Assembly: GCA_050250895.1 (NCBI GenBank)
Contig: JBFWNU010000001.1
Span: forward strand, 64,001-128,000
Origin: Vulcanimicrobiota bacterium
GTDB taxonomy: Bacteria > Vulcanimicrobiota > Xenobia > Xenobiales > JADMJV01
Direction of reading: 5' to 3'
Length of the DNA: 64,000 nt
Shown: piece by piece, positions 787-53,152 of the stretch
Layout of the letters: the number at the start of each line of letters is the position of its first letter
How positions within the stretch are numbered: position 1 is the first letter of the stretch
Made by a program: the position numbers and the translations under genes
Notes under the pieces: generated by a model
The model's input: the letters and a program-made list of their open reading frames with translations, nothing else
Told to the model about the DNA's origin: nothing
The model's database searches: none

Positions 787-2122
787 AGCTCAGGCGGTCG
801 CGGAGTAGGCTGGCGAGCTCGTCGAGCACGCTGTCGAGTTCGGACTGGTCTGACCCTTCGACCATCACGCGGACCAGGGGCTCCGTGCCGGAAGGGCGCA
901 CCAGGATGCGGCCGCGTGACTCGAGACGCTTTTCCATGGCCTCGATGCCGGCCTGAATCTCGGCGTCAGAGAAGAGGAGTTCTTTGTTGCGAGCGGGCAC
1001 GTTGACCAGCTTTTGGGGCAGGCGCTGCATGTCTTGAGCCAGGGCCGATAGAGCCAGCCCGCTCTCTACGAGCACACCGGCCAGGGTCAGGCCGGTAAGG
1101 ATGCCGTCGCCGCTGGTGCTGCGGTCTAAGAGCAGGATGTGGCCTGACTGCTCGCCGCCCAGCACGGCTCCGGCCTTCTGCATCTCTTCAAGCACGTAAC
1201 GGTCGCCAACCTGGGCCCGAACGAGTTCGATGCCCAGTTGGCGCAGGGCCAGTTCCAGGCCGAGGTTGCTCATCACCGTGGCCACCACCAGGTTGGCGGC
1301 CAGCTTGTTCTGGCGCTTGAGCCAGCTGGCTAGAATCAGCATGATGTGGTCGCCGTCAATCTCTTGACCCTGCTCATCGACGGCCAGGCAACGGTCGGCG
1401 TCGCCGTCAAAAGCCAGCCCCAGCGCGGCTCCCTGGCGCACCACCGCCTCGGCCATCTGAGTGAGGTCGGTCGAGCCGCACTTGACGTTGATGAGGTTGC
1501 CGTCGGCCTGGCTGCTGAGCAAGACGACCTCGGCGCCCAGGGCCGCGAACACTTCGGCGGCGTGGCCACAGGCGGCCCCATGGGCGCAGTCGAGGACCAG
1601 TTTGAGGCCCTCGAGCCGTTGGCCTTTCTGGCCGAGATAGTCGCGATAGATCTGGGCCACGTTGTCGGAGGGAAGAACCTGGCCGATGTCGGCTCCGGTA
1701 GGTCGCGGCAACTCGGCCGTCCGGGCGATGAGCTTCTCGAACTCGCGGCACTGGGCGTCGTCGAGCTTGTAGCCGTCAGCACGAAAGAGCTTGATACCGT
1801 TGTCGGCGATGGGGTTGTGGCTGGCCGAGAGCACGGCCCCGCCCTGGCACTCTAGCACTTGCACCAGGTGAGCCACGCCGGGGGTAGGGATGATGCCGGC
1901 CAGGATCAAGTCGGCACCTGAGGAGGTGGCGCCGGCCACATAGGCGGCCTCGAGCATGGGTCCGCTCAGGCGCGAGTCGCGGCCCACCACGACGGTGGGT
2001 CGGCGGTCGTGCTGCTGCCGGAGAAAATAACCGTGGGCCCGCCCGATGGCAAAGACCGTCTCGGGGGTCAGTTCCTGGTTGGCTACGCCGCGGACGCCGT
2101 CGGTACCGAAAAGCTTGCTCAT
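785..2122 (-). CDS. glmM: Phosphoglucosamine mutase
   Basis: N-terminal KLFGTDGVRG, active-site SASHNP, metal-binding DGDADR, GGEQSGH and RPSGTEP motifs. Confidence 0.97.
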   Translation of the reverse strand: MSKLFGTDGVRGVANQELTPETVFAIGRAHGYFLRQQHDRRPTVVVGRDSRLSGPMLEAAYVAGATSSGADLILAGIIPTPGVAHLVQVLECQGGAVLSASHNPIADNGIKLFRADGYKLDDAQCREFEKLIARTAELPRPTGADIGQVLPSDNVAQIYRDYLGQKGQRLEGLKLVLDCAHGAACGHAAEVFAALGAEVVLLSSQADGNLINVKCGSTDLTQMAEAVVRQGAALGLAFDGDADRCLAVDEQGQEIDGDHIMLILASWLKRQNKLAANLVVATVMSNLGLELALRQLGIELVRAQVGDRYVLEEMQKAGAVLGGEQSGHILLLDRSTSGDGILTGLTLAGVLVESGLALSALAQDMQRLPQKLVNVPARNKELLFSDAEIQAGIEAMEKRLESRGRILVRPSGTEPLVRVMVEGSDQSELDSVLDELASLLRDRLS

Positions 2123-2149
2123 GGCGGGCCTTTTCGCCTTCGAGGGGCG

Positions 2150-3136
2150 CTACCCTCCGGCCGATGGGCTGGCCTCGGTGCCAACCTCGGACGGCACTTC
2201 CTTCTTCTCGGGGGTAACCCGCACCCGCACCCGGGTGGCGCTCACCAGGGTCACGCCTTTGGGCGGCAGCAGGGCCACCTCTTGCTCGATCACGCTGGTG
2301 GGCGCGCCAAAGTCGACGGCCTCGGTCTTGATCACGGTGGGGGGCGAGAGCCCCTGGGCTACGCGGATGGTCACCACGCTGGGGTCAGCCCGCATACTGT
2401 AACGGTACCCCTCGCGAATGGCTACTCGCGCGTTCTCGAGAGCCACCGGCACTCCCATCAGAGTTCCTTTGGATTCGATGGGCACCGTGGCCGCCACCCG
2501 CTTGGGAGCCACCCTGACCTGGTAGTTGTTGCCGGCTACCGGCGTGCCGTTTTCGCTCACCGGAACCAGCCCGGTGACGTCGGCCGTGAAGGTTCGGCTC
2601 TGGCCGTCGAGCAAGATGCGCCCGCGCACCCGTGCCACCTCGTTGACCAGCGCTTCGGGACCCTGGATCTTGACCCGGTCGGGATCGACCGAGACGTCTC
2701 CGGTGGACATCCCTTCGGCCGGGTTGCCACCCACCTTGACCTCGACGGGCACTTCCTTGGCCAGCAGAGGAGAAATCTTGACATTGACCGAGCGAGGCTC
2801 CTGATCGACCAGGCGCACCTCGGGAGGATAGAGCACCTTCACTTCCGGCCAGTGACTGCCGGCGGTCATACCGTTGAGGTCGACGTAGGCGCGCACCAGA
2901 CCTTCGCGCAACTGCTTGACCACCCGCGACTCACCTTCGAGGGTCACGTCCACCGTCTCGGCCGAATACTCATAGGGAATCAGGTTGGGAGCGTTGCCCT
3001 GGCGCTCGAGGGGCAAAGTGAGCGTGATCTGGGCCAGCACCTCGCGCCCGGCCGGGCTGTTGGTGACGCGGACGTAGGCCCACAGCACGATGGCGATGAC
3101 GAGAGCGAGAACGCGTAGTCCGAGGTTCTCTTTCAT
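2150..3136 (-). CDS. cdaR: YbbR-domain regulator of diadenylate cyclase
   Basis: N-terminal anchor ENLGLRVLALVIAIVLWAYV, YbbR-like beta-rich repeats, and position between cdaA and glmM. Confidence 0.9.
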   Translation of the reverse strand: MKENLGLRVLALVIAIVLWAYVRVTNSPAGREVLAQITLTLPLERQGNAPNLIPYEYSAETVDVTLEGESRVVKQLREGLVRAYVDLNGMTAGSHWPEVKVLYPPEVRLVDQEPRSVNVKISPLLAKEVPVEVKVGGNPAEGMSTGDVSVDPDRVKIQGPEALVNEVARVRGRILLDGQSRTFTADVTGLVPVSENGTPVAGNNYQVRVAPKRVAATVPIESKGTLMGVPVALENARVAIREGYRYSMRADPSVVTIRVAQGLSPPTVIKTEAVDFGAPTSVIEQEVALLPPKGVTLVSATRVRVRVTPEKKEVPSEVGTEASPSAGG

Positions 3137-3921
3137 TTCTTAGGCTCGCTCACCAGATACTTGCCCAACTGCTTCTTGACTTCTCCTTCATCGACCAGCG
3201 GGCGCGAAAAGGCGCCGTCGTGGGCCAGACGCACCTCGCCCGACTCTTCCGAGACCACCACCACTACGCAATCAGACTGCTCGGAAACACCCAGCGCGGC
3301 CCGGTGGCGGGTGCCGAACTTGGCGTCGATGGTCTGGGCCGAAAGAGCCAGATAGCAGCCGCCGGCCACGATGCGGTTACCGCGCACGATGACCGCTCCG
3401 TCGTGGAGAGGGGTCTTGGGATGAAACAGCGAGATCAACAACTTGCCCGAGACTAAACCTTCGATACGCTGACCGGTTTCGATAAAGTCCTCGAGACCGG
3501 CTTCGCGTTCGAGCACGATCAGAGCTCCGTGGCGCAGGCTCGCCAGCGAAGAGGCGGCATAGGCCAGGTCATCGAGCAAAGTCGCCAACTCTTGCCGGTC
3601 CATCTTGCCAAGACCCGCGGCCGGAAGCATGCCTTGCTGTCCCAGACGCATCAGGGCGCGGCGCAACTCGGGCTGGAAGACGATGGGAACGAGCACCGCC
3701 AGGGAAACCAGGAACCAGTTGAGCAGCCAGCTGAGGGTCTGCAGCCGGCCAGCGTGCGCCACCAGCAGCAACAGAAGGATGACGCCGACTCCCTGGATGA
3801 TCTGGACGGCGCGGGTGCGTTGGATGGCCAGGAGCACGAAATACAGACACAGAGCAACCAATAACACGTCGAAGAAATCGGTTAGCTCGACCTGATTCAG
3901 GAATTGCAGCAGAAATTCCAA
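3133..3921 (-). CDS. cdaA: Diadenylate cyclase CdaA/DacA
   Basis: Three N-terminal TM helices, IVFQPELRRAL, LHDGA and GTRHRAA catalytic motifs. Confidence 0.96.
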   Translation of the reverse strand: MEFLLQFLNQVELTDFFDVLLVALCLYFVLLAIQRTRAVQIIQGVGVILLLLLVAHAGRLQTLSWLLNWFLVSLAVLVPIVFQPELRRALMRLGQQGMLPAAGLGKMDRQELATLLDDLAYAASSLASLRHGALIVLEREAGLEDFIETGQRIEGLVSGKLLISLFHPKTPLHDGAVIVRGNRIVAGGCYLALSAQTIDAKFGTRHRAALGVSEQSDCVVVVVSEESGEVRLAHDGAFSRPLVDEGEVKKQLGKYLVSEPKK

Positions 3922-12287: not shown

Positions 12288-12488
12288 GTCCGGCACTGCG
12301 AGCTCGGTGGCGAGCCAGTACCTGAACCTGCCAAAGCAGGCGGGCGCACCTCTAACCCGGACCCCTTCAGGACTCCCCCGCCGCGAACGACAGGGGCACT
12401 CAACACAGGGGCCGGAGTCATGCTCCCCAGGTAAAAACGTTGGCTCAGTACTAGTGCCCGAGCAACACCAGAGTCGCAGGAACCGGAC
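12288..12488 (-). ncRNA. ssrS: 6S RNA
   Basis: ~200 nt. The ends pair (GUCCGG-UUC-CUGCG with CGCAG-UG-CCGGAC). It has a central bubble (GCCAACGUUUUUACCUGGGGAGC) and the typical 3' segment GCGCCCGCCUGC..GCAGGUUCA, plus its own promoter. Confidence 0.82.
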
Positions 12489-49176: not shown

Positions 49177-49638
49177 ATGGACTCCATCGAAACCACTCCC
49201 AACCCCCGCGTGCGCGCCGCCGTGGCGATTTGCCACGACGAGTCGATCTTACTCGTCTGTCACGAGAAAGCGGGTCGTCGCTACTGGCTCTTACCCGGGG
49301 GCGGCATCGACTTCGGCGAGCCGGCTCATCAGGCCGCCCGGCGCGAAGTGCTGGAGGAGACCGGGCTGGAAATCGAGATGGGACAGCTGTTGTTGGTCAA
49401 CGAGACCCTGGCTCCCGACGGCTCGAGGCACCTGCTGCACCTGACCTTTGCCGGAACCTTGACCGGCGGACACTTGCGACCCTCGCTCGACCCCCGCGTC
49501 TGCGGAGCTCGCTGGGTGCCCCTCGACGAACTGGCCGGCGTAACCCTCCATCCTCCCCTGGCTCCGCAATTGCTGGAAGCCCTCGACGGCGGCTACGGCC
49601 ACCGCGACCGCTTCCTCGGTAACCTCTGGGTCGACTGA
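49177..49638 (+). CDS. NUDIX hydrolase
   Basis: Nudix box PGGGIDFGEPAHQAARREVLEETG; ATG 49177. Confidence 0.92.
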   Translation: MDSIETTPNPRVRAAVAICHDESILLVCHEKAGRRYWLLPGGGIDFGEPAHQAARREVLEETGLEIEMGQLLLVNETLAPDGSRHLLHLTFAGTLTGGHLRPSLDPRVCGARWVPLDELAGVTLHPPLAPQLLEALDGGYGHRDRFLGNLWVD

Positions 49639-49744
49639 GGGAGCCGCTGCCCGGAGAAGGGAGCCGCTGCGCGGAGAAGGGAGCCGCTGCGCGGAGGAGG
49701 GAGCCGCTGCCCGGAGAGCGGAGCCGCTGCGCGGAGAAGGGAGC
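49639..49744. repeat. 20-nt tandem repeat x5 (GGGAGCCGCTGCSCGGAGAA)
   Basis: Copies at 49639, 49659, 49679, 49699 and 49719. Confidence 0.9.
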
Positions 49745-50019
49745 GAAACTCGCTGTCGCTCGTTTCGAGGTTCTGGTTAGGCGGCCTGCGGCCGCAATCC
49801 TTCGGGCGCGTAGCCGCGCCGAATTCGGAATTCGGTAGTGGGGGCTGCCCGAATCTAGCTCGCTGGTTAGCAGCCGGTCTTCCGCGCGGAAGTGGCCCCC
49901 GCCGCGACTTCCTCGGCGAGAATGGCCCGCCCGCGGGATGCCGAGCGGCTCGTACTTCCATACTTCCAGCTGGAAGACATGCCAGTTGCCAGTTCTCGGC
50001 CGGCGCGAGGCCAGCACGG

Positions 50020-50627
50020 CTAGCCCAAGCTGCAAGGTCCGCGACTCGGCCGGACTTCCGTGCGGAAGTGGCCCGGCGGAGGCCAGTCCACGGCTTGCCG
50101 TGCCAGAGTTACGACGCGTAGCGTCGAGTAACTCAAAGTCTCACTGGCGAGCGCAAGCGAAGCCAGTGCTCCCATCTCCGGGCGCAGCCCGGCTCCCTTC
50201 TCGACGACGAAGTCGTCGCCCCGCTAGGCCAAGCTGCAAGGTCCGCGACTCGGCCGGACTTCCGTGCGGAAGTGGCCCGGCGGAGGCCAGTCCACGGCTT
50301 GCCGTGCCAGAGTTACGACGCGTAGCGTCGAGTAACTCAAAGTCTCACTGGCGAGCGCAAGCGAAGCCAGTGCTCCCATCTCCGGGCGCAGCCCGGCTCC
50401 CTTCTCGACGACGAAGTCGTCGCCCCGCTAGGCCAAGCTGCAAGGTCCGCGACTCGGCCGGACTTCCGTGCGGAAGTGGCCCGGCGGAGGCCAGTCCACG
50501 GCTTGCCGTGCCAGAGTTACGACGCGTAGCGTCGAGTAACTCAAAGTCTCACTGGCGAGCGCAAGCGAAGCCAGTGCTCCCATCTCCGGGCGCAGCCCGG
50601 CTCCCTTCTCGACGACGAAGTCGTCGC
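50020..50627. repeat. 204-nt near-perfect tandem repeat x3 with internal hairpins
   Basis: Copies start at 50020, 50224 and 50428. Internal inverted repeats: ACTTCCG-TG-CGGAAGT, GAGTTAC..GACGC-GTA-GCGTC..GTAACTC and CGACGAC-GAA-GTCGTCG. Confidence 0.94.
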
Positions 50628-50818
50628 TCCTTTCTCACGAGCAAAGCGAGTTGCTCCTCTCTCACGAGCAAAGCGAGACGCTCCTCGCGAGCAACGCGAG
50701 CGCCCCTTGCCAGTTTGTGAACTTCGTTCCACAGCTCTGTGGGTAACCCGGTGGACAAACAGGCAAAAGCCCGAAGGCACGCCGCATGAAAGCAAAAAAC
50801 CTCCATAAAATCAGGGTC

Positions 50819-50847
50819 TTGACATCATAGCCGAGGTGCGGTATCTT
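50819..50847 (+). promoter_or_regulatory. sigma70 promoter upstream of the long non-coding unit
   Basis: TTGACA (50819-24), 17 nt, TATCTT (50842-47), with A-tracts upstream (UP-element-like). Confidence 0.8.
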
Positions 50848-50853
50848 GCATTC

Positions 50854-52007
50854 ACTCCAGTCACGGAGTCGCCCCGCCAAGCGAGAGAGGCGGAGGGGTC
50901 TGGCACCCCCGACGGGTATCGGTCGAAGGGTCAGAGGTTAGACGCAAACCTTCGTGGTCACCGTCCTAGACGGAGCACCATCAAGCGTCTCCAGCGTCTC
51001 GACTGGAAAAATCGAGACAGGGCTCGACAGCCAGGTCTGGAACCCGCGAGGGGAAAGGGCGCCCGGGGCAACTCGGGAGATCCGCCAGATGAAGGTGAGC
51101 GAGGAGTTCGGTTGGTGACCGAACAGCGGAACACTCAAACGCCGCGCCACTCCACGGTGGCCAAAGAGAGTGGGGAGCACCTTCCCTGAGGTGTCCGGCC
51201 CACGCGGGATGTGGGAAGTGCCCTGACAAGCACAGAGCGGAGCTGCGACGGTTCTCTCGAGAACTCAAGCCGTGACGGTCGGCAGACCGTTGAAAAAGAG
51301 CGCAGGGGTGCATCTCTCCAGAAAGATGCTGAAGTCATCCATCAAATGGGGTGACAGGGCCCGCAGCCCAGGTTGGAACCGCGAGGATCAAGACTACTGC
51401 GAGGAACACTCGGAGTAGAGCCGACCCAGGGTAGAAGCGGGGTGCTCGAGAGCAGGACGGTGCTCGAGCAGCGGAGCGAAGGCTGCCGCACGAGGGTGAG
51501 AATCCTCGTCAAAGACTTCGGGGTTGCGAACAGACCTCAGACTCGCCCAGAGCCGCACTGGTAGAAAACGGGAGACGAGGCATCGTCTGAAACCCACGGC
51601 GGTGGAGCCGATGGGGGGTAACTCGGACCAGACGCAAAGGCGTCAAACGCGGGGGCGGAACTGCTAGGAACCGCGACGCGAGAGCGTGAAAAATGGAGCA
51701 GGGGTAGCATGCAGACCAGAGATATGCGCAGCGCTTCGTCTGAAGGCATTCGAAGCGAGGCCCGGCGCCTTAAACGGACCCGCGAGGGATAAAATCTTGG
51801 AGACAAGATGCCGGCTTAGGCGGACTCCCGGGAGCCTGGTGCAGGTGGGAAGGCGGCCAGGCAACGGTAGCATCCGATCTACCGTGACGTGCCAGCGTCC
51901 AAGGCGGATGATAGAGTATCGCCTCGATAAAAGCGAAATGCGTCTGTCGGACTGGTGAAGATGGCAGACCACAAAGACGCGTGCCGAGGAACGCGTCTTT
52001 TTTTTTT
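50854..52007 (+). ncRNA. Candidate giant (~1150 nt) structured non-coding RNA of unassigned class
   Basis: Bounded by promoter and terminator, no credible ORF, purine-rich strand, more than 20 local hairpins including several GNRA tetraloops. Confidence 0.72.
51973..52007 (+). terminator. Strong intrinsic terminator
   Basis: AAAGACGCGT-N8-ACGCGTC followed by T10. Confidence 0.9.
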
Positions 52008-52027
52008 GCCCGGCGACCGAAGTGAAC

Positions 52028-52210
52028 TTACTGCCTTTCGCGACTCTCTTCAAGAGCCTGGCGGCTGTAACACGCCATCGCCTCGTCGAGGGTGGCGTGC
52101 CTTTCACACCACCAAACCTCCCGCGGATGCTGATGGGAGAACGTGCCCCCACAATCCTCGTAGATGAATTTGCCGTTGGGTAACTCCTTGACCGGGATCG
52201 ACTGGTGCAT
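52028..52210 (-). CDS. Small Cys/His-containing hypothetical protein
   Basis: 60-aa ORF with an AAAGGCGGAG RBS-like sequence and natural composition. Confidence 0.55.
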   Translation of the reverse strand: MHQSIPVKELPNGKFIYEDCGGTFSHQHPREVWWCERHATLDEAMACYSRQALEESRERQ

Positions 52211-52411
52211 TGGCTCCGCCTTTCACCGAGAACGCGTCCCTGACCGGTGAGACCTGACCGCGTCCTCATCACTCCCTACCGCCCTTTGCGCTGGGAACGA
52301 CTAACTCTTAACATTCGACGACGGCCCGAATCGGCCTTCGCTCGGGGAAGCTATTTGATCGAAGCGGGGCCGCTCGGGTTTGAGACCCGAGGCCTGGCTG
52401 TATAAGAAACT

Positions 52412-52786
52412 ATGGTTGAAGCGTTCGGCCCTCAAGGCATAGGTTATCCCAACGAAGAGGTGGAAATCACCCGCTTGATCCGGGACCGACTTGGACGCGA
52501 AAAGTGTCTCGAGCCCAGTGAGCGCGAGACCGTCGCCTACCGTATCGCCGAGATCATGGTCGCCGCCAAGCGGATGTACTCGACCTCGCTTCCCCGTTTA
52601 ACCAACGCCAACGGAGAATCCAGCGCCACCATGGAAGAGGACCTCAGCGGCATGTCGATGACCTTCTTGCACCTGTGTGACCTCCTACAAGACTTTCGAA
52701 GCGCCTTTGCCCTCGCCCACGACCAGGAACCGGCCCCAGCCTACGATTCTGATGGCGAAGATGAAGACGAGTCTTGGGAGCCTTAA
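52412..52786 (+). CDS. Hypothetical protein with an acidic C-terminus
   Basis: 124-aa ORF with typical codon usage upstream of thioredoxin. Confidence 0.7.
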   Translation: MVEAFGPQGIGYPNEEVEITRLIRDRLGREKCLEPSERETVAYRIAEIMVAAKRMYSTSLPRLTNANGESSATMEEDLSGMSMTFLHLCDLLQDFRSAFALAHDQEPAPAYDSDGEDEDESWEP

Positions 52787-52837
52787 AGCGGTCGATTGTT
52801 CGAAAGGTGGTCGACCGAGCGAAGCGAACGGCCCGGT

Positions 52838-53152
52838 ATGAAGCAAGTAACAAAAGATGACTTCGAAGCTGAGGTCATCCACTCCAACACCACGGTATTC
52901 GTGGAATTCGGAGCCGACTGGTGCGCTCCTTGCAAGCGCCTGGAGCCCCTGCTCGACAAGCTGGCCACCGACAACGCCGGCCGCCTGAAGGTGGTCAAGG
53001 TCAACGCCGAAGACGACCAGCCCCTGGCCGTGAAATACCAGGTCCGGGGTCTTCCCACCATCGTAGTCTTCAAGAACGGCGAACCGGTCGACCGCAAGAA
53101 CGGCTTCCAGTCCGAGGCCAACCTCAAGAAGCTTCTCGACGACCACGCCTAA
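52838..53152 (+). CDS. trxA: Thioredoxin
   Basis: EFGADWCAPCK and VRGLPT motifs; ATG 52838. Confidence 0.93.
   Translation: MKQVTKDDFEAEVIHSNTTVFVEFGADWCAPCKRLEPLLDKLATDNAGRLKVVKVNAEDDQPLAVKYQVRGLPTIVVFKNGEPVDRKNGFQSEANLKKLLDDHA

Follow-up and report, generated by a model that had tools for sequence, protein, structure and literature searches.

A kilobase-sized, highly structured non-coding RNA with tandem-unit origin in Candidatus Xenobia

The DNA analysed here, 64,000 nucleotides (nt) from the 9.5-Mb, 17-contig genome of a Vulcanimicrobiota bacterium (assembly GCA_050250895.1, contig JBFWNU010000001.1, positions 64,001 to 128,000 of the forward strand; the window in what follows), carries at 50819-52007 an RNA gene that runs from its promoter through its terminator (Table 1). 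It is almost certainly a chromosomal gene for a highly structured and abundant non-coding RNA (ncRNA) of about 1.15 kb, endowed with a sigma-70 promoter and an intrinsic terminator of its own, and belongs to a so far undescribed family of 1.0-1.6 kb. An earlier note on this DNA had pointed to a TTGACA-N17-TATCTT promoter, a 10-bp hairpin followed by ten T at the other end, a purine-rich strand and no credible open reading frame (ORF) in between, and all of this was borne out. The promoter was the only sigma-70-like site in 49500-53000, where shuffled sequences gave 0.2 +/- 0.5, and it was conserved in 18 of 18 homologues: the -35 box reads TTGACA in 16 and TTGACG in two, and a TAnnnT box follows 16-18 nt later in every one, with a variable spacer sequence. 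The A/T-rich tract upstream of the -35 box resembles a putative UP element, and by reading we found a comparable A/T run at the same place in most of 17 homologues compared. A GC-rich hairpin with a T-run closes all 18 full-length homologues (16 recognized by script, two by eye), and the terminator stem shows compensatory changes among paralogues. When the paralogues are aligned, their similarity sets in at the -35 box and ceases with the terminator. The purine richness of the forward strand shows as a GC skew of +0.08 to +0.18 and an AT skew of +0.26 to +0.39 over 50900-51950.

Table 1. Features of the RNA gene, in window coordinates. RNA positions are given where the analysis used them.
Feature	Coordinates	Strand	Remarks
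A/T-rich tract	50789..50813	+	just 5' of the -35 box; read from the sequence
Sigma-70-type promoter (TTGACA, 17 nt, TATCTT)	50819..50847	+	-35 box 50819-50824; -10 box 50842-50847
RNA proper, ~1.15 kb	50854..52007	+	predicted +1 at ~50853-50855; 3' end within the T-run
5' hairpin P1, ACUCC-AGUCAC-GGAGU	50854..50869	+	in the RNAalifold consensus
Hairpin with AAGCGAGAGA loop inside a CGCCCC...GGGG helix	50870..50897	+	
Long-range helix, 5' arm	51151..51155	+	RNA 304-308; pairs with 51602-51606
Diverged module copy M2 (CAGGGG, CCAnA-loop hairpin, second hairpin, GGGCCCG)	51303..51364	+	RNA 456-517; motif layout
Third H1-type hairpin, GGGGUUGCGAA-CAGACCUCAGA-CUCGC	51520..51562	+	RNA 673-715
Long-range helix, 3' arm	51602..51606	+	RNA 755-759
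Canonical ~200-nt unit, the one kept, homologous to sister-family units	51641..51847	+	unit hidden Markov model (HMM) E = 1e-16 (C1:115641-115847)
Core three-way-junction module M3, 72 nt	51697..51768	+	most conserved part of the family; covariance model R1, 99.0 bits, E = 1.4e-19
Variable 3' tail	51868..51972	+	longer by 100-450 nt in genus g3
Intrinsic terminator, 10-pair GC stem (51973-52000) and run of 10 T	51973..52007	+	T-run ends at 52007

The longest forward-strand ORF of the locus encodes 117 amino acids (50836-51189), and a reverse-strand frame of 202 amino acids (51664-52272) overlaps the 3' end of the RNA. Stop-free frames of 100-340 codons lie on both strands, as expected at 60% G+C; coverage by such frames being uninformative at that composition, indel lengths and codon periodicity were used instead. 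Pairwise indel lengths among the 18 homologues left a remainder of 1, 2 or 0 on division by three in 3161, 1421 and 1113 cases, respectively, and variable sites in four close paralogues were spread 97/94/82 over the three codon positions. Hence there was no excess of multiple-of-three indels in the former set and no codon periodicity of substitutions in the latter. By both measures a coding signature is lacking: neither the 117- nor the 202-amino-acid frame behaves as coding, and the region 50819-52007 is non-coding.

The window's genome holds six copies of the RNA gene, four of them full-length (81-83% identity) and two diverged. Copies are 74-83% alike overall, except for one recent pair among the full-length ones, which are 96-98% identical and lie 5 kb apart. 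A gene between the two copies on contig C2 of this genome contains 24-nt tandem repeats (L027 9600-9760 and 15900-16000); weak Pfam matches make it a YhgA/Rpn-like putative transposase-family protein, and a related segment lies 6.2 kb off. Against these six large-RNA genes stand a single 16S and a single 23S gene (C1:2631049-2635844; L212, L213). RNase P RNA (C1:1125467), transfer-messenger RNA (tmRNA; C3:741155) and signal recognition particle RNA (C1:1302198) are also encoded elsewhere. Since the genome has these genes and its ribosomal RNA (rRNA) genes at other places, the RNA studied here does not replace a housekeeping RNA. The only 6S RNA candidate of the genome lies in the window itself, on the reverse strand at 12298-12466 (30.7 bits, E = 7e-4, below the Rfam cut-off of 46.4).

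A DNA search for homologues matched 11 of 61 related genomes, the window's own included. By group, 9 of 15 genomes in the window's family and 7 of 8 in genus g3 were matched, usually at several places per genome. We delimited 18 full-length members, of 994 to 1643 nt, each with its own promoter (TTGACA, or TTGACG in two) and terminator. A degenerate pattern taken from the most conserved stretch was then scanned against one genome for each of 185,579 species and returned 19 stretches: 15 full or partial homologues, one core module only, and three chance matches, two in Mucilaginibacter and one in Leptolyngbyales, which were dropped as they had no further similarity. Most matching records were titled Vulcanimicrobiota bacterium, Candidatus Xenobia bacterium or plain "bacterium", Ca. 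Xenobia being a class within the phylum Vulcanimicrobiota. Three records (L031, L044, L046, L048) were titled Burkholderiales (two) or Selenomonadaceae (one contig with two stretches); their RNA loci recur with identical scores in genomes G001, G014 and G005, which belong to the window's family, and the bins are probably mislabelled. On metagenome contigs the pattern matched 119 stretches, all 119 of which were homologues by nhmmer. Together with the 18 genome-derived members they gave 137 sequences in 106 clusters at 97% identity. There was no match to the pattern among 2.9 million viral contigs, and none by BLAST in phage and plasmid collections.

A tree splits the family into two deep classes, I and II. 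Both are present in the window's genome (copies c1-c4 as opposed to c5 and c6) and in the g3 genome G015. In the sequences searched, the family is confined to one clade of large-genome Vulcanimicrobiota, the class Ca. Xenobia. A head-to-head pair of RNA genes was noticed in genome G013 (L021 / L045; L021 ~1210-3080), with starts about 90 nt apart; the second gene matches the family model in two pieces only (L045, model positions 2-172 and 260-802), which amount to about its first two thirds. The same layout was seen in L050 and L095.

We evaluated the secondary structure by comparison. The 106 cluster representatives were put into a profile alignment, from which mutual information with average-product correction was computed with no structure assumed; a large part of the 140 top pairs make up about 30 antiparallel helices, the remaining ones being scattered and non-helical. 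On the same alignment RNAalifold gave 240 pairs in 55 helices, and 137 of these pairs showed a compensatory double change in at least three sequences. This structure was projected onto a plain MAFFT alignment of the 18 genome-derived members, which yielded 232 pairs in 51 helices. There, canonical cells amounted to 88.5%, as compared with 37.0-40.4% for slid partners and 77.1 +/- 0.3% for shuffles. Changes on both sides affected 143 pairs, as compared with 56-68 for slid partners and 86.4 +/- 4.4 for shuffles, and none of 500 shuffles reached the observed values on any measure. Covariation among homologues is strong. A structure derived from 69 class I sequences (262 pairs) was next examined in 37 held-out class II sequences, where 78.0% was paired as compared with 35-41% for slid partners. 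Between the two class consensuses, 144 pairs agree, 52 have changed in both partners, 15 in one partner, and 51 are non-canonical in class II; the last may reflect class-specific regions or misalignment.

Individual helices illustrate the pattern. In hairpin P1, CUCC/GGAG becomes UUCC/GGAA or CUCGG/CCGAG in homologues. The neighbouring AAGCGAGAGA-loop hairpin is closed by helix 23-31/42-50 (RNA positions), whose 7 pairs are 100% paired with 3 compensatory; the same hairpin motif heads each tandem unit in the sister-family array L194. The long-range helix 304-308/755-759 encloses the central ~450 nt, with pair types CG:8 UA:8 UG:1 and CG:7 UA:4, and mutual information for 305/758 stands at z = 6.7; local hairpins at both arms are an alternative (300/313, z = 9.9). 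Three further predicted long-range helices, 23-27/806-810, 89-92/976-980 and 235-239/807-811, involve invariant or near-invariant columns and are not claimed. In the variable 3' tail, helices 1023-1028/1059-1064 and 1038-1042/1048-1053 covary. The earlier note had named nine hairpins, several of them GNRA-capped. Seven coincide with consensus helices that carry compensatory changes. For an eighth, ACGGTAG/CTACCGT, the support is one high mutual-information pair (1019/1036, z = 11), and the ninth, ATCTTG-GAGA-CAAGAT, falls at a length-variable spot where other members have different hairpins.

The most conserved part of the RNA is module M3, which reads, in order, CAGGGG-U, hairpin H1 (loop CAGACCnnAG), GCAGCG, hairpin H2 and A-GGCCCG. 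Of the 1156 positions of this copy, 176 are invariant in the 18-member alignment, and 46 of these fall within the 72 of the module. Further traces of the module occur upstream. In M2, helices 463-469/476-482 and 487-493/502-508 have 6-7 covarying pairs each; nhmmer did not detect this second core copy in the window RNA, and for class II paralogues the complete 180-nt core had a significant second match (E = 9e-12 and 5e-9). The third H1-type hairpin gave a weak unit-HMM match over RNA 673-707 (E = 0.31), and its helix 679-682/696-699 has 3 covarying pairs; to judge by the motif, it may be homologous to the module.

The module also occurs in other lineages. Covariance model R1, searched over 151 genomes of the phylum, matched 21 of them: 13 of 15 in family f1, 5 of 5 in f2, 1 of 1 in f5 and none of 19 in the small-genome family f3, with one borderline match (E = 0.008) among 71 genomes of f15. 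Genomes of f2 have 9-17 matches each, in arrays that run along one strand and repeat about every 250 nt. Locus L194 consists of five tandem units of 205-258 nt, 61-78% alike, between a TTGACA-17-TATATT promoter and a terminator, and arrays of ~440, 640 and 1200 nt at other loci represent 2, 3 and 5 units. Over 71 instances of the junction (65 distinct), its structure was 89.7% paired as compared with 32-48% for slid partners, and 12 of 17 pairs were compensatory, which none of 500 shuffles equalled, on an alignment that was model-fitted and so favours structure. The whole unit, in 36 instances from 13 loci, has 55 pairs and was 91.1% paired as compared with 30-41% for slid partners. Its layout is an opening hairpin with a AGCGAGAGA loop, the three-way junction, a GCGA-capped hairpin and a closing hairpin. 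The invariant loops are identical in every unit of the 5-unit RNAs.

An HMM built from the 36 units found one strong match in the window RNA, the canonical unit of Table 1 (an earlier unit HMM had given E = 4.8e-10 there), and weak ones at four other places; in the window's genome all its matches fall within the six RNA genes. Tandem folded units of about 250 nt are thus the ancestry of the RNA. In genera g1 and g3, an ancestral RNA of tandem units presumably turned into a fused one, in which the earlier units diverged, gained hairpins and were linked together and the last one stayed canonical. The diverged units are specialized domains joined by at least one long-range helix. We propose to define the family by the 72-nt junction module (CAGGGG, H1, H2, GGCCCG) within a promoter-to-terminator RNA of at least two units, and the window RNA contains both.

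RNA of this family is present at a high level in RNA libraries. A first indication came from the metagenome contigs: in 71 of 119, the start lies among the first 35 positions of the RNA model, with 0-5 nt of flanking sequence before the RNA. These contigs measure 1.0-1.7 kb, and in many cases they stop inside the predicted terminator stem or shortly ahead of it. Contigs lying flush with the RNA 5' end would be the pattern expected of assembled transcripts. As many as 39 of the 71 start exactly at model position 17 (window 50864), a base that belongs to the 3' half of hairpin P1 and lies some 10 nt past the expected +1; few start at positions 6-10 and most at 15-21. The start at position 17 may be a processing site or an assembly effect. 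Part of the sequence was also found in 16 sequencing runs from 6 studies, nine of them recorded as RNA. We aligned contigs of three metatranscriptomes (three studies) to 50300-52600 of the window. Contigs of relatives, 90-96% identical, covered 50865-51934, with a word depth of about 940-3800 (X1), 260-2800 (X7) and 4-20 (X3), and depth was 0 in the flanks 50685-50838 and 51994-52378; stretches left uncovered in a further run, X2, were not counted as evidence. Single contigs of 863 nt (X1) and 1007 nt (X3) showed 32 and 37 differences. Some abundant contigs of the RNA libraries join 51172 to 51696 (X1, depth ~1083) or 51169 to 51667 (X7) and skip some 500-520 nt of the middle; most likely, these stem from shorter relatives without the central units.

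Known RNA families did not account for the locus. The Rfam scan of the whole window at the gathering threshold returned no hits. A permissive cmscan of 49500-52600 with E up to 10 against all 4227 families of Rfam 15 gave seven chance-level hits only, with no GOLLD, ROOL, OLE, HEARO, intron, RNase P or tmRNA among them, and no small- or large-subunit rRNA model matched in the region. Four sister loci (L194, L049, L196 and L195) produced one unrelated Rfam hit (E = 0.5). None of these hits is credible. No description of it was found in the literature, including passages of two preprints, supplements being outside the scope of this search. The earlier note had seen no signature of rRNA, RNase P, tmRNA or group II intron domain V, with which the Rfam scans agree, and had rightly called the RNA longer than typical OLE, ROOL and GOLLD RNAs, as the family measures 1.0-1.6 kb. 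Of its two suggestions, a stand-alone large ncRNA of a new class stands, and a very divergent GOLLD-like RNA found no support from cmscan.

The surroundings of the gene were also inspected. Pfam searches on 20 ORFs flanking three copies returned unrelated functions (L10, NUDIX, GGDEF, hybrid kinase, S1-P1 nuclease, WD40 and YhgA-like protein), with no transposase next to the copies examined, and the neighbours of the six copies in the window's genome are mutually unrelated. No transfer RNA (tRNA) gene occurs in 40000-62000 of the window. Directly 5' of the promoter, a repeat field at 49638-50707 comprises 5 repeats of 20 nt, 3 of 204 nt (98-100% identity) and about 3 of 27 nt. Used as BLAST queries, the 204-nt unit and the 20- and 27-nt arrays together gave 188 hits in the genome, and pieces of the 204-nt unit are dispersed genome-wide, often as short tandem arrays. 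The field is a dispersed family resembling repetitive extragenic palindromic sequences, unrelated to the RNA. Downstream, at 52412-52786 on the forward strand and 400 nt 3' of the RNA, lies a gene for an acidic helical protein of 124 amino acids, as it does in two g3 genomes. Neither Pfam nor NCBIfam has a family for the protein, and Atlas features offered no usable match. Its own family occurs in 50 of 61 genomes of the phylum, with two copies in both g1 and 7 of 8 g3 genomes and one in most others.

What might such an RNA do? Our tentative answer, which we hold at somewhat less than even confidence, is that it serves as a multivalent scaffold or decoy. The variable number of units, the same loops in each unit, the several paralogues, the lack of a fixed neighbour, the strong promoters and the very high abundance all point to multivalency and hence to this reading. 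The repeated units would present the same conserved loops several times per molecule, and the abundant RNA could in this way gather and order, or else titrate, multiple copies of a partner that is most probably a protein. Its dosage would be set by the many gene copies and the strong promoters. Taken together, the identity of the gene, its build and this mechanism fall just short of an even chance of being right as a whole.

A number of observations weigh against this account, in whole or in part. At the level of the gene, terminator-like sites are not enriched in the region (4 observed, 4.0 expected), and the one at 51973-52007 is credible because it is conserved across homologues, not because of enrichment. 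The 178-nt 3' core is thermodynamically no more stable than shuffles (z = 0.13); a single sequence proves little, and so the case rests on comparison with homologues. Even there, the column-shuffle null of the cross-validation came close, at 75.1%, because most columns are conserved, which makes the slid control the more telling one. Expression rests on assembled contigs of close relatives and not on reads of the strain, and such contigs give no exact ends, strand or level. At the level of mechanism, a unit of 250 nt and some 55 pairs goes far beyond the complexity of a simple hairpin for protein binding, and diverged units tied by a long-range helix would fit one integrated fold better than a row of equal binding sites. 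An invariant GGA is absent from the conserved loops AAGCGAGAGA, CAGACCnnAG, GCGA and GA(A/G/C)G(A/G)CA, so that CsrA-type binding is not indicated. Neither did a partner emerge from the neighbourhood. Clustering of 203, then 233, ORFs within 3-4 kb of 30-40 RNA loci retrieved only synteny between orthologous loci. The 124-amino-acid protein was rejected as a dedicated partner, because its family is phylum-wide and, of 9 genomes checked, only 3 have the extra gene copy just 3' of the RNA gene; it is kept as a weak lead. Last, conserved runs compared with the genome's 16S and 23S gave one complementary 8-mer, which, in a comparison run with no shuffle control, is no more than chance should yield.

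Among the alternatives, the one that survives best, though we consider it rather unlikely, is a single integrated RNA machine or RNA-only architecture. Its units would pack in cis, and perhaps also across molecules or paralogues, to form a large and defined particle or a ribozyme. Given the size and intricacy of each unit, the diverged units and the long-range helix, it is nearly as good a fit as the scaffold or decoy. The at least 51 helices, the many GNRA-type loops (GCAA, GAGA, GCGA), the invariant junction sequences and the covarying long-range helix 304-308/755-759 all speak for it. So do units that have diverged in the window's lineage yet are each conserved among orthologues, two ancient paralogue classes that coexist in the window's genome and at least G015, and the lack of a partner gene found in cis. 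There is also a precedent, as GOLLD, ROOL and OLE form homo-oligomeric RNA-only assemblies according to the abstract of one study (PMC12286853). However, unit number varies freely in sister lineages (2, 3 or 5), which a precise fold tolerates poorly, and the RNA showed no catalytic motif and matched no known ribozyme model. A bolder version, which we regard as improbable, is that the tandem units would fold into a closed pseudo-symmetric megastructure, five-fold in the plain arrays, as a single-chain counterpart of RNA nanocages. The 1.15-kb form would then be one of broken symmetry with specialized domains, and the paralogue classes would co-assemble.

Alternatively, the long transcript might be a precursor cut into stable working RNAs of about 250 nt, in the manner of tRNA, CRISPR (clustered regularly interspaced short palindromic repeats) or ToxI arrays. 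Sister-lineage genes are indeed plain tandem arrays with one promoter and one terminator, and processing might explain why so many contigs begin at model position 17. Yet dozens of independent transcript-like contigs are full length at 1.0-1.7 kb, the 863- and 1007-nt contigs of RNA runs cross several units, a covarying long-range helix joins distant units in the window's lineage, and no nuclease gene is conserved beside the arrays. We therefore give this possibility little credence.

Still less probable is an origin of the copies by transposition, which would make the locus a non-autonomous mobile element, a satellite or an intron-like element lacking an ORF; the six dispersed copies, the nearly identical pair 5 kb apart, the head-to-head pairs in a relative and the repeat field flanking the window copy lend some colour to the idea. 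Similarity is, however, bounded by the -35 box and the terminator, and visual inspection of the aligned paralogues showed no terminal repeats (no search for target-site duplications was made). The paralogues are old (81-83% identity), with classes common to several genera; no transposase, reverse transcriptase or intron model is associated with them; no phage, plasmid or viral match was found; and the upstream repeats belong to the genome-wide family unrelated to the RNA. Finally, it is scarcely tenable that the region encodes a protein, intact or as a pseudogene, or forms a long cis-regulatory leader for the 124-amino-acid gene that follows, despite stop-free frames on both strands and a conserved small gene that in 3 genomes lies 400 nt further 3' in the same orientation. 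Against this stand indels that are mostly not multiples of three, no codon periodicity, a strong terminator between the RNA and the next gene, adjacency of that gene in 3 of 9 genomes only and unrelated neighbours at the five other copies of the window's genome.

Whatever the mechanism, we are dealing with a new class of structured RNA, which stands out by its size, by its number of gene copies and by a tandem-unit origin that can still be seen. To our knowledge, very few large bacterial ncRNAs with a complex fold and no known function have been described, namely OLE, GOLLD, ROOL, raiA and HEARO. Each of them opened work on RNA catalysis, RNA-protein machines or RNA-only assemblies. The present family is larger than any of these, has more than 50 covariation-supported helices and counts several paralogues per genome. 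Plain arrays of 2, 3 and 5 units beside a fused kilobase RNA are a rare natural example of RNA growth by internal duplication, otherwise argued usually only for rRNA. The family also marks Ca. Xenobia, an uncultured and poorly known class, and is a possible handle on its biology. With promoter, terminator, unit boundaries and covariance model defined, in vitro transcription is possible straight away. Should the closed megastructure be true, it would be the largest protein-free structural RNA outside the ribosome and among the most abundant RNAs in these uncultured bacteria.

As compared with known systems, the RNA resembles rRNA genes in several respects: it is of kilobase size, has covarying helices by the dozen and expansion hairpins of variable length, is read from a near-consensus promoter preceded by an A/T-rich tract, and reaches very high RNA abundance. 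Unlike rRNA, the family is limited to one clade of one phylum, and the genome has its true 16S and 23S genes at another place, as single copies. With CRISPR and type III ToxI arrays it has in common that sister-lineage genes are head-to-tail repeats under one promoter. In contrast to them, its units are 205-258 nt long, 61-78% identical and without unique spacers, whereas CRISPR and ToxI repeats are nearly identical and measure 28-37 nt; no cas or toxin gene is adjacent, and the full-length RNA assembles from RNA libraries.

GOLLD, ROOL and OLE are closer. Like them, the RNA is very large, intricately folded and stand-alone, with no known biochemical function, and it has conserved junctions, variable hairpin tips, a narrow taxonomic range and abundance in environmental RNA. 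It differs in matching no Rfam model at E up to 10, in being built from tandem internal units and in having six diverged chromosomal paralogues per genome. ROOL is about 580 nt and GOLLD about 800 nt long, and both often occur in phages or prophages and beside tRNA genes; OLE has a dedicated partner gene, oapA, next door. The RNA described here is, unlike GOLLD and ROOL, absent from phage collections and not beside tRNAs, and unlike OLE it adjoins no dedicated partner gene. Published abstracts put the length of OLE at about 600 nt.

The Csr/Rsm sponge RNAs (CsrB, RsmX/Y/Z) consist of repeated modules in variable number, with paralogues, a promoter and terminator of their own and an unfixed neighbourhood, and the eukaryotic NORAD is analogous. 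The present RNA, too, is an abundant transcript of repeated modules, variable in number and with several paralogues, under its own strong promoter and terminator and with no fixed gene neighbourhood, a likeness of design and not of membership. Its modules, however, are about 250 nt with some 55 pairs and not short GGA hairpins, they have no known binding protein, and in the window's lineage they are diverged and joined by long-range pairing. The RNA is thus closest in spirit to GOLLD, ROOL and OLE, and closest in design to the sponge RNAs, while being a member of none of these groups.

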